Virus record (IMG/VR): IMGVR_UViG_2529293078_000007
Origin: a virus
Taxonomy: Duplodnaviria > Heunggongvirae > Uroviricota > Caudoviricetes
Length of the DNA stretch: 5,365 nt
Strand: one strand, 5' to 3'
Shown here: one piece after another, positions 1,308 to 5,365 of the stretch
How positions within the stretch are numbered: position 1 is the first letter of the stretch
Layout of the letters: each line of letters opens with the position of its first letter
Program-made: the position numbers and the translations under genes
Notes under the pieces: generated by a model
What the model saw: the letters and a program-made list of their open reading frames with translations, nothing else
What the model was told of the DNA's origin: nothing
Databases searched by the model: none

Positions 1308-1329
1308 AATGTTTTGATAAAAAAACATT
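1308..1329. promoter_or_regulatory. Operator-like palindrome AATGTTTTgataaaAAAACATT (second copy of TGTTTT-N6-AAAACA)
   Basis: Perfect 8-bp inverted arms with a 6-bp spacer. Core and spacing are identical to the 588-605 site. Lies directly against the -35 of the predicted promoter downstream of the repressor gene. Confidence 0.4.
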
Positions 1330-1356
1330 GACCTTAAATGTTCGTTTTTCTAAACT
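1328..1356 (+). promoter_or_regulatory. Candidate sigma70 promoter (PL-like) for the ydfA-like operon
   Basis: TTGACC (1328-1333), 17-nt spacer, TAAACT (1351-1356). Sequence-only prediction. Confidence 0.35.
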
Positions 1357-3112: not shown

Positions 3113-3301
3113 ATGGAAACGTCATTACCAAACGTTAATACGTCTGAAGGTTGTTTTGATATTGGTGTTCTGCTCAGTAACCGGGAGTTTACTGAAGATG
3201 CCATTAACATGAGGAAATATGAGCCTTATCTGCTCAATGATAATTCCATACTTTCCCGAATTGCTCTTCTTGAACTTGGTATTTTCGGAGAACGTCAATG
3301 A
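3113..3301 (+). CDS. dicB: DicB-like cell-division inhibitor, 62 aa
   Basis: METSLPNVNTSEGCFDIGVLLSNREFTEDAINMRK... closely matches the remembered Qin DicB N-terminus (..LPNVNTSEGCFEIGV...FTEDAIN.RK), with the same 62-aa length. GAGGA lies 7 nt upstream of ATG 3113. The track ORF 3008..3301 is an in-frame upstream extension without an SD. Confidence 0.8.
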   Translation: METSLPNVNTSEGCFDIGVLLSNREFTEDAINMRKYEPYLLNDNSILSRIALLELGIFGERQ

Positions 3302-3486
3302 CTTCAGCATTTGCACTGATGATGACGGTTTTTCTTATAACGGGTGAATCACAGAATGTGATTACCGGAATTTATGCCAGTAAAGAATCCTGCCTCCAGG
3401 CAAGAGACGAGCAAAAAATTTCTGGTGAATGCCTCCCGGTAAAAAAAGTATCGCTGTACCTGAATAACGAAACACCGGCTGGATAA
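3298..3486 (+). CDS. ydfD: YdfD-like small protein with hydrophobic N-terminus, 62 aa
   Basis: ATGA start/stop overlap with dicB (3298-3301) and GGAG 6 nt upstream. Hydrophobic N-terminal segment MTSAFALMMTVFLITG. Same size and position as Qin YdfD downstream of dicB. Confidence 0.6.
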   Translation: MTSAFALMMTVFLITGESQNVITGIYASKESCLQARDEQKISGECLPVKKVSLYLNNETPAG

Positions 3487-3578: not shown

Positions 3579-4823
3579 ATGAGCACTGATAAAGAAGAAT
3601 TTGCGCTATATTGCGAAGCAAAAAATGACAAAGTCAGAAAACGTCTGGGAATTAAAGGTGGTTTTTACTGGACTACAGCAAAAAAATTATCTGTTGCCAT
3701 CTCCCGCTGCATTACCGCAATGGATGACAACGATTATGATGAAGACGACTTTAAAAAACCCGTTCGCGTCCATTTACCCGTTGTGAATGACCTTCCACCT
3801 GAAGGCGTGTTTGATACCGAATTCTGCAACCGATACGAAAAAGGCGGGGAAGATGGCATTACAATGGTATTTATCGCGCCCTCTCCCTCCGTGCAGGAGA
3901 AACCAGCCAGTACTGACAATACCAACGTCAACGGCGAAGACATGACGGAGATTGAGGAGAATATGCTCCTGCCGGTTTCTGGTCAGGAGCTGCCCATTCG
4001 CTGGCTTGCGCAACACGGCAGCGAAAAACCAGTAACGCACGTTGCACGGGAAGAACTTCAGGCATTACATATAGCACGGGCGGAAGAACTGCCGGCTGTT
4101 ACTGCCCTGGCCATTTCTCACAAAACAAAGCTGCTCGACCCGCTGGAGATTCGCGACCTTCACAAACTGGTACGCGACACTGACAAAGTTTTCCCTAATC
4201 CCGGTAATTCAGACCTGGGACTGATAACTGCTTTTTTCGAGGCATACCTGGACGCTGACTACACTGATCGGGGTCTGCTGACAAAAGAGTGGATGAAAGG
4301 AAATCGTGTTTCGCGTATCACCCGTACGGCTTCCGGTGCAAATGCCGGTGGCGGGAACAAAACCGATCGCAATCCGAATTTAGTACACACCTTCGATACG
4401 CTGGATGTGGAGATTGCAGCAGCCACACTTCCGATGGATTTTAATATTTATGAAATTCCGGGCAGCGTTTATCGTCGCGCAAAAGAAATCGTCCTGAAAA
4501 GAGAAAGTCCGTTCAAAGAATGGTCCGCAGCACTTCGCGCAACCCCGGGTATTCTGGACTATTCCCGCGCCGCTATTTTTGCACTTATCCGGAGCGCTCA
4601 CCCTGAGTTTTATCACTACCCGGGACGCCTTCAGGGGTATATCAACGCCTACTTAACGGAGACTGATCACGAGAACCCCAGCAAGGAAACTCTCACTGCT
4701 GCACGACATACACCGGAAAAAGATATCCTGGAAGAAGTTAACCGCGAACTGTCTGCTAAGCAGGAAACAGAAGAAGAAAATGATGAAGAAAAACCGCAAC
4801 CATCTTGCGCAATGGCAGAATGA
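3579..4823 (+). CDS. Hypothetical prophage protein, 414 aa, acidic patches; occupies the position of Qin ydfE
   Basis: Long ORF with GAGGT 8 nt upstream of ATG 3579. Acidic stretches DDNDYDEDDF and C-terminal ETEEENDEEKPQ. No catalytic motif recognised. The ydfE assignment is positional only. Confidence 0.7.
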   Translation: MSTDKEEFALYCEAKNDKVRKRLGIKGGFYWTTAKKLSVAISRCITAMDDNDYDEDDFKKPVRVHLPVVNDLPPEGVFDTEFCNRYEKGGEDGITMVFIAPSPSVQEKPASTDNTNVNGEDMTEIEENMLLPVSGQELPIRWLAQHGSEKPVTHVAREELQALHIARAEELPAVTALAISHKTKLLDPLEIRDLHKLVRDTDKVFPNPGNSDLGLITAFFEAYLDADYTDRGLLTKEWMKGNRVSRITRTASGANAGGGNKTDRNPNLVHTFDTLDVEIAAATLPMDFNIYEIPGSVYRRAKEIVLKRESPFKEWSAALRATPGILDYSRAAIFALIRSAHPEFYHYPGRLQGYINAYLTETDHENPSKETLTAARHTPEKDILEEVNRELSAKQETEEENDEEKPQPSCAMAE

Positions 4824-5365
4824 TAATCAGAAGAAATCTGGCAAAAGACCGTTTTACAGTACCAAAAACACAGGCGGGAACCAATCGTGTGATTCACCTT
4901 ATTAAGCCCGCAATCGACGCTCTCCGGAGTCAGATGGCACTAACGAGACTGAGCAAAGAGCATATCATCGATGTTCACCTCAGAGAATTCGGCAGAACAG
5001 AGAAACAAAAATGTACCTTTGTTTTTCAACCTGAAGTGTCAGCGAAAGTAAAAAATTATGGCGACCATTTTACCGTTGACTCAATAAGGCAGATGTGGGA
5101 CGCAGCGGTAAAGCGTGCCGGAATCCGCCATCGCAAATCGTATCAGTCGAGACACACTTATGCCTGCTGGTCGTTAACAGCAGGAGCTAACCCGGCATTC
5201 ATTGCAAACCAGATGGGCCATGCAGATGCGCAAATGGTGTTTCAGGTGTACGGGAAATGGATGTCAGAAAATAATAATGCGCAGGTAATGAACCGCCCCG
5301 GGTTTCCTGGAGAGTGTTTTATCTGTGAACTCAGGCTGCCAGATCATCGTTTCCGATGGAAGCAT
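4820..5365 (+). pseudogene. Tyrosine recombinase/integrase, C-terminal catalytic-domain fragment (intQ-like, lacks the N-terminal half), continues past the window end
   Basis: Frame is open from the stop at 4784-4786 to the window end. First ATG 4820 overlaps the stop of the upstream gene (ATGA). Integrase catalytic motifs are present: beta-hairpin Lys region FTVPKTQAGTNRVIHL, Arg-His in SRHTYA (about 5150-5164), MGHAD, and the catalytic Tyr in QVYGKW (5249-5251). No Box I arginine region or N-terminal DNA-binding domains exist in any upstream frame. Confidence 0.55.

Follow-up and report, generated by a model that had tools for sequence, protein, structure and literature searches.

The closest described relative of the locus analysed here is the immunity region of the Qin prophage of Escherichia coli K-12, in which the regions on both sides of dicA have been described as holding lambda-like operator sets and deletion of dicA derepresses the promoter dicBp 22-fold (PMC10448788). 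The palindrome Oc (TTGTTAGTCATAACTAACAA) is a target of DicA in vivo, and altering just one of its bases abolishes the binding (PMC3441716). A second relative is the O157 prophage CP-933P/Sp12, in which GFP fusions have shown that PaaR2 and the Cro-like protein YdaS each repress the PL-like promoter PL933P, with its operators OL1-3, by a factor of about 100 (PMC8630535). In lambda, CI and Cro use common operators with opposite orders of preference (summarised in PMC10448788). A study of DicC in O157:H7 (PMC6915034) was considered as a further precedent and set aside, its primers pointing to a different locus, of the 135-aa DicA type. Searching the literature with the Sakai locus tags ECs2208-2214 returned nothing relevant, and the search yielded no paper on operators of the Sp11 type.

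The DNA under study, 5,365 nucleotides of the IMG/VR virus record IMGVR_UViG_2529293078_000007 and called the window in what follows, is early-left DNA of a lambdoid prophage, comparable in kind to that of K-12 Qin. It is 100% identical to chromosomes of E. coli O157:H7 and 99.9% identical to the Sakai prophage Sp11 (“lambda-like phage”). On the minus strand lie a ydaT-like gene, a CII analogue that extends from before position 1 to 287, and the gene of an 80-residue Cro-like regulator of the P22_Cro family (271-513; Pfam PF14549, 1e-15), which travels with the immunity module. The plus strand encodes a CI-like repressor of 212 residues with an N-terminal helix-turn-helix (HTH) and a C-terminal S24 peptidase domain, both recognised by Pfam (605-1243). 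It is followed by the first gene of the operon, which is ydfA-like (DUF1391; 1536-1688; Pfam 1e-29 over residues 29-75 of a 77-aa frame) and for which a longer frame begins at 1455, the short form being the one used in the RefSeq annotation of relatives. Next come a 212-aa gene (1700-2338; ECs_2211 in the Sakai annotation, the maximal ORF from 1688 having 216 aa) without a Pfam family match, the small RNA DicF (2887-2938; Rfam RF00039, scoring 75 bits where the gathering score is 48), which has a terminator-like stem within it at 2921-2936, the cell-division inhibitor gene dicB (3113-3301; Pfam DicB, 1.7e-35) and a ydfD-like gene (DUF1482; 3298-3486; Pfam 2.9e-15), all on the plus strand. The order downstream of the repressor (DUF1391, DicF, DicB, DUF1482) is that of K-12.

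At its right end, the window holds a truncated recE-like gene and then an integrase fragment broken by the end of an IS629/IS1203 element. The recE-like gene (3579-4823) is listed as a truncated pseudogene in the Sakai annotation; the integrase fragment terminates in IS629/IS1203-type sequence at about 5289-5365, and strains free of the insertion align only up to 5288. The broken integrase and the truncated recE-like gene together indicate a prophage that is defective for excision.

The comparison with Qin reveals a common plan built from different parts. Both loci combine a Cro-like gene, a divergently oriented repressor gene and a promoter reading into ydfA and on to dicF-dicB-ydfD; in both, this promoter has the -35 hexamer TTGACC, at the same position, and the operators are 6+6+6 palindromes starting with TGTT. 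However, the operator reads TGTTTT-N6-AAAACA here and TGTTAG-N6-CTAACA in Qin, the repressor has 212 residues and an S24 domain here, whereas DicA has 135 residues and no peptidase domain, and there is no DNA homology across 293-1369. The two also differ in the place of the perfect right-hand palindrome, which lies at the end of the repressor gene here and downstream of the dicC -10 in K-12. Since neither the repressor nor its operators are of the DicA type, the promoter would work in the manner of dicBp, within a different immunity type.

The candidate distal left operator (OL-distal) is a perfect palindrome at 1308-1329, AATGTTTTgataaaAAAACATT, in which the 8-bp arms AATGTTTT (1308-1315) and AAAACATT (1322-1329) are separated by GATAAA (1316-1321). 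Of its core, TGTTTT-N6-AAAACA, the window has two copies and no more, one at 588-605 and one at 1310-1327, which flank the repressor gene; the same two copies are the only perfect ones in 17.7 kb of the Sakai prophage. The first-pass annotation had reported this palindrome and its shared core, and both its sequence and its coordinates are exact. Two sites match the 22-mer at 13 or more of the 16 specified bases, against 0.03 expected, and a shared 6+6 palindrome of equal spacer length did not arise in any of 5000 dinucleotide-preserving shuffles of both intergenic regions. For a single arm of at least 8 bp in the region 1244-1454, the corresponding figure is 1.4% of shuffles.

A consensus scan places, on the plus strand, the -35 hexamer TTGACC at 1328-1333 and, after a spacer of 17 nt, the -10 hexamer TAAACT at 1351-1356; this PL-like promoter would be the equivalent of dicBp, and from its hexamer geometry transcription is predicted to start at the A at 1363, 7 nt after the -10, so that the centre of the palindrome falls at about -44. 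The earlier description of the palindrome as sitting against a good -35/-10 pair holds for the presence, position and spacing of the pair, but the palindrome overlaps the -35 by 2 bp instead of merely abutting it, and a 9/12 match to consensus is no better than chance alone: six promoter-like sites at this level were found in the window, where 8.6 are expected. As the hexamer match is unremarkable, the promoter call rests on position and conservation. A second, imperfect copy of the operator that had been overlooked, AATGTTCGTTTTTCTAAACTTC (11/16 matches), is found at 1337-1358, where it spans the promoter spacer and the -10, and is the candidate proximal left operator (OL-proximal). The left side thus has two recognisable copies, 29 bp apart, which between them overlap the -35 and the -10 of an outward-reading sigma-70-type promoter. 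A third left operator at about 1250-1270 (TTTGATTA) was entertained and dropped, since it is not conserved in the three contigs with diverged repressors (L093-L095) described below.

On the other side of the repressor gene, the 91 bp between it and the Cro-like gene contain a promoter on the minus strand and candidate sites at 540-561, 563-584 and 586-607. Read on the cro-sense strand, the region 514-607, with a G+C content of 32%, runs CATGTTTTGATTTTAAAACA ... ATGGTTTTG ... TTGACT ... TTGGTTTTGATTATTAAACT. The promoter is PR-like and was found by consensus scan as TTGACT (571-566) and TAAACT (547-542) with a spacer of 18 nt. The site adjoining the repressor gene (OR-distal, 586-607) reads TGTGTTTTaaaatcAAAACATG, has 13/16 matches, is conserved in L093-L095 and includes the ATG of the repressor (605-607). 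The PR-proximal candidate (540-561), AAAGTTTAATAATCAAAACCAA, has 11/16 matches and covers the spacer and the -10 of the promoter, while the middle candidate (563-584), which covers its -35, is weak, with one good half-site (ATGGTTTT, minus strand) and an 8/16 match. The half-sites at 560, 583 and 606, which are the left ones when read on the cro-sense strand, are spaced by 23 bp, compared with the 29 bp between the left operators. TAAACT is the -10 of both outward promoters, and in each case it forms part of the right half-site of the proximal operator.

The spacer of the OR-distal site also holds a possible -10 for the repressor gene itself, TAAAAT (593-598), for which there is no convincing -35, and no Shine-Dalgarno sequence precedes the ATG. 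Read from the sequence, this suggests a leaderless and autoregulated repressor message, like that of lambda cI from PRM. In the K-12 and BLR types, an operator likewise abuts the start codon of the repressor.

The repressor is a member of the HTH and S24 family of phage regulators. Pfam detects Peptidase_S24 (8e-13) in it, HTH_31 and, just under the Pfam cutoff, HTH_3 (E = 2.4e-4), and the nearest solved structures are lambda CI, 434 and P22 C2. Its residues 1-69 align with the DNA-binding domains of P22 C2 and the 434 repressor, and its N-terminal domain shares 36% identity with K-12 DicA and 31% with P22 C2. As recognition helix the repressor has SKGSVSQW, to which the SHVSVSQW of DicA is related, and the Cro-like protein has SKTTVSMW. 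The corresponding regions (repressor, 691-717, ATGASKGSVSQW; Cro-like protein, 424-447 on the minus strand, ALGTSKTTVSMW) share 7 of 12 residues, the leading Ser-Lys included, which fits both proteins reading the same operators. The common SK..VS.W motif is a by-eye observation only, because BLASTP of the N-terminus of the repressor against the Cro-like protein gave no alignment.

In the C-terminal domain, the catalytic residues Ser129 and Lys173 are kept. Where P22 C2 and lambda CI have their Ala-Gly cleavage bond, the alignment shows Ala94-Ala95 in this repressor (884-889, within LQQAASW), which leaves the SOS inducibility of the repressor uncertain. The full 212-aa ORF, with the HTH intact, is present in the window as well as in Sakai (6605-7243 of the Sakai locus, L001). 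The Sakai annotation ECs_2209 comprises only the C-terminal 112 aa of the protein, and the repressor of Sp11 was scored as disrupted in a survey (Asadulghani et al., 2009; PMC2669165). When the contigs of GTDB genomes were scanned for the repressor, only spurious S24-domain matches were obtained (Mycobacterium, Alicyclobacillus). The same repressor is carried by the GenBank phages vB_EcoS-813R8 and vB_EcoS-640R1, which are prophages of clinical isolates and whose abstract contains no sign of induction.

Conservation was assessed in 87 loci with near-identical or diverged repressors, which fall into 39 distinct haplotypes. From the stop codon of the repressor to the junction of the module, no block varies less than the palindrome, in which 0.6% of haplotype-positions differ from the window; the figure is 1.7% for the -35 and for the -10, and 3-35% for the neighbouring blocks. 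The -10 has no site that is variable in at least 10% of haplotypes, and the TTGAC of the -35 is invariant in the relatives, the complete hexamer being TTGACT in L093-L095. These three contigs encode repressors that are 83-84% identical, with an invariant recognition helix, and they retain ATGTTT[T/A]GATAAAAAAACATTGAC at the palindrome, the core GTT..TTTTTCTAAACTT of the proximal operator and an unchanged -10, while the bases just upstream, those that separate the -35 from the proximal site and those after the -10 have all changed.

Between the repressor gene and the palindrome lies a GC-rich hairpin, GCCATC-N5-GATGGC, within 1266-1295 (-15.9 kcal/mol), followed by the block TAACAGCTGCCTGC (the two together spanning 1266-1303). 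The stem of the hairpin is conserved, whereas variation is seen in its loop and in the base that follows the stem, and there is no U-run behind it; the block is among the better-conserved stretches, also when diverged relatives are included. The repressor transcript may have its 3' end at this hairpin.

The left operators do not stand alone, as the Cro-like gene, the right operators and promoters, the repressor gene and the left operators with their promoter form one exchangeable immunity module (293-1369). The junctions of this module are sharp, lying at 292/293 on the left, in the overlap of the Cro-like and ydaT-like genes, and at 1369/1370 on the right, about 7 nt past the predicted start of transcription. 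Genomes with other repressors have DNA in common with the window only up to 292 and from 1370 rightward (from 1498 in the case of K-12). The position of the right junction means that operator and promoter travel with the repressor, whereas ydfA-dicF-dicB is common to other immunity types. Among 5426 complete E. coli genomes, about 1035-1038 (~19%) have the module in full. The region coding for the N-terminus of the repressor occurs at 1038 places in 1032 of these 5426 genomes, and in all of the approximately 1038 repressor-bearing genomes the repressor is contiguous with the region 1308-1358. With the core on both sides, its conservation and this mosaic co-inheritance, the earlier proposal that the repressor gene is flanked by two operator/promoter regions, in the style of lambda OR/PR and OL/PL, is supported.

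Where the repressor differs, other palindromes occupy the same position: TGTTAGCTATAGCATACA and TGTTAGTCATGGCTAATC in K-12 Qin (DicA), TGTTAGATCAATCTAACA and TGTTAGGTTATTCTAAAT in the BLR(DE3) type, and TTACCCATGGGTAT and ATACCTATGGGTAT in the type of CFT073 and E2348-69. The layout, in which a distal operator is followed by the -35 and by a proximal operator ending in the -10, is common to the K-12, BLR and CFT073 types, and in each of them the left palindromes match those in their own cI-cro intergenic region. This co-variation of operator and repressor across immunity types is the strongest computational argument for the predicted operator function.

Taken from comparative sequence analysis, the palindrome at 1308-1329 is very likely a left operator through which the neighbouring repressor silences the DicF/DicB operon. 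It is also probable that the two Sp11-type left operators differ in strength, the site at 1308-1329 being the stronger and that at 1337-1358 the weaker, and that the CI-like repressor shuts off the left operon through them. In such a mechanism, dimers of the repressor would bind the TGTTTT-N6-AAAACA sites at 1308-1329 and 1337-1358, which the Cro-like protein probably recognises as well, and the bound sites would span the promoter from its -35 to its -10, so that RNA polymerase would be occluded at the rightward sigma-70 promoter with its start near 1363. The early-left operon (the ydfA-like gene, the 212-aa gene, DicF, dicB and the ydfD-like gene), which would be transcribed as a whole from this promoter, would consequently remain off during lysogeny, and the matching sites at 540-607 would control the divergent promoters of the Cro-like gene and the repressor gene.

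From a position near -44, some regulators activate transcription and do not repress it. The palindrome could accordingly be a real regulator site that does not act primarily by occlusion through the repressor, being either mainly a site for the Cro-like protein or an activator or UP-like element at about -44, with repression exerted from the proximal site only. The position of the centre, the overlap with the -35 of just 2 bp and the A7 tract in the spacer of the palindrome, which resembles an UP element, are compatible with such a role, as are the opposite preferences of lambda CI and Cro for shared operators (PMC10448788) and the SK..VS.W helices of both regulators here. In its unoccupied state, the distal site might also stimulate the promoter. 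However, the distal operators of K-12 and BLR also lie upstream of the -35, at a promoter that is known to be repressed (PMC10448788), and PL933P is repressed by both of its regulators, which makes this reading unlikely.

Two further explanations would deprive the palindrome of any operator function. One is that it acts in RNA, as a terminator or a 3' stabilising hairpin of the repressor transcript, given that it is located 65 nt past the stop codon of the repressor and that its arms could pair into a hairpin of 8 bp (z-score -5.3). This hairpin reaches only -5.7 kcal/mol, though, consists almost entirely of A-U pairs, is followed by GACCUUAAAUG instead of a U-run and was missed by the terminator scan; a far stronger, GC-rich hairpin is available upstream, at 1266-1295, and the other copy of the core precedes the repressor gene, a place in which termination would serve no purpose. 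An action in RNA is therefore the least probable of the readings considered. Scarcely more credible is a chance product of A+T-rich intergenic DNA, in which an arm of at least 8 bp turns up at the frequency given above for shuffled sequences, or a binding site of a host factor, for example IHF, whose consensus is WATCAANNNNTTR and to which the element TATCAAAACATT within the palindrome comes near when compared by eye. Against both speak the failure of the 5000 shuffles to produce a shared core and the strong conservation of the site relative to its flanks, and the replacement of the site, as opposed to its retention, wherever the repressor differs argues against a host factor.

CP-933P/Sp12 is a neighbouring lambdoid prophage in the same strain and resembles the present locus in its pair of YdaS (Cro-like) and YdaT (CII-like), in a repressor gene located between operator sets with common repeats, and in having -35 and -10 elements that are alike at PR and PL. 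In contrast, the regulator there, PaaR2, is small, of the HTH type and unrelated, and a toxin-antitoxin pair comes after it; the OL operators reported for that prophage number three, compared with two recognisable ones here, and the operator sequences differ.

With lambda and with P22 and its C2 repressor, the locus shares an HTH and S24 repressor encoded divergently from cro, operators that overlap the promoter hexamers, three OR sites at a spacing of 23 bp (candidates here, the middle one weak) and an immunity module that is swapped as a unit. As for the leaderless cI message of lambda, the start codon of the repressor lies at an operator without a Shine-Dalgarno sequence. The locus differs from lambda and P22 in that neither an N gene nor a nutL-type element could be recognised downstream, the left operon begins with the ydfA-like gene and dicF/dicB, and two OL sites are 29 bp apart; in addition, the best palindromes here are the promoter-distal ones, and the cleavage site of the repressor is Ala-Ala and not Ala-Gly. 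All in all, the locus is an ordinary, textbook lambdoid arrangement and represents a common immunity type.

The analysis defines an operator, TGTTTT-N6-AAAACA, and the promoter layout associated with it for an immunity type found in about one fifth of sequenced E. coli, O157:H7 included, and it offers a prediction of the means by which this dicF/dicB copy, one of several in O157:H7, stays silent. To our knowledge, the K-12 Qin copy of this cell-division-inhibitor operon does not respond to DNA damage. With a repressor that has an S24 peptidase domain where Qin has the non-cleavable DicA, a direct wiring of DicF/DicB expression to the SOS response becomes conceivable, which would link DNA damage to the arrest of cell division, to DicB-mediated phage exclusion and to the DicF-dependent control of virulence. 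This proposal is tentative and somewhat doubtful: the operon could be wired to SOS in this way, or the Ala-Ala bond could make the repressor insensitive to induction and thereby keep the operon permanently off. A loop between the operator sets, which are separated by 722 bp, might also form, as in lambda.

Downstream of the left promoter, the predicted 5' leader extends over about 170 nt (1363-1535) up to the probable start of the ydfA-like gene at 1536, which is preceded by a GAGG Shine-Dalgarno sequence, and from 1370 on it is common to several immunity types. A structured or known RNA in this leader was considered and rejected, the fold of 1363-1460 having a z-score of 0.34 and a permissive Rfam scan (1240-1700) giving only noise. 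Within the rightward operon, a minus-strand ORF of 70-73 aa (ECs_2212; 2339-2548), to which Pfam assigned no family, is convergent with the PL-like transcription and has a promoter-like site of its own, TTAACC-18-TAAAAT, at 2576-2547.

The proximal left operator has common polymorphisms at 1339 and 1344, where the O157 haplotype reads AATGTTCG and most relatives read AAAGTTCA; the majority form is closer than the O157 form to the PR-proximal operator, AAAGTTTA.
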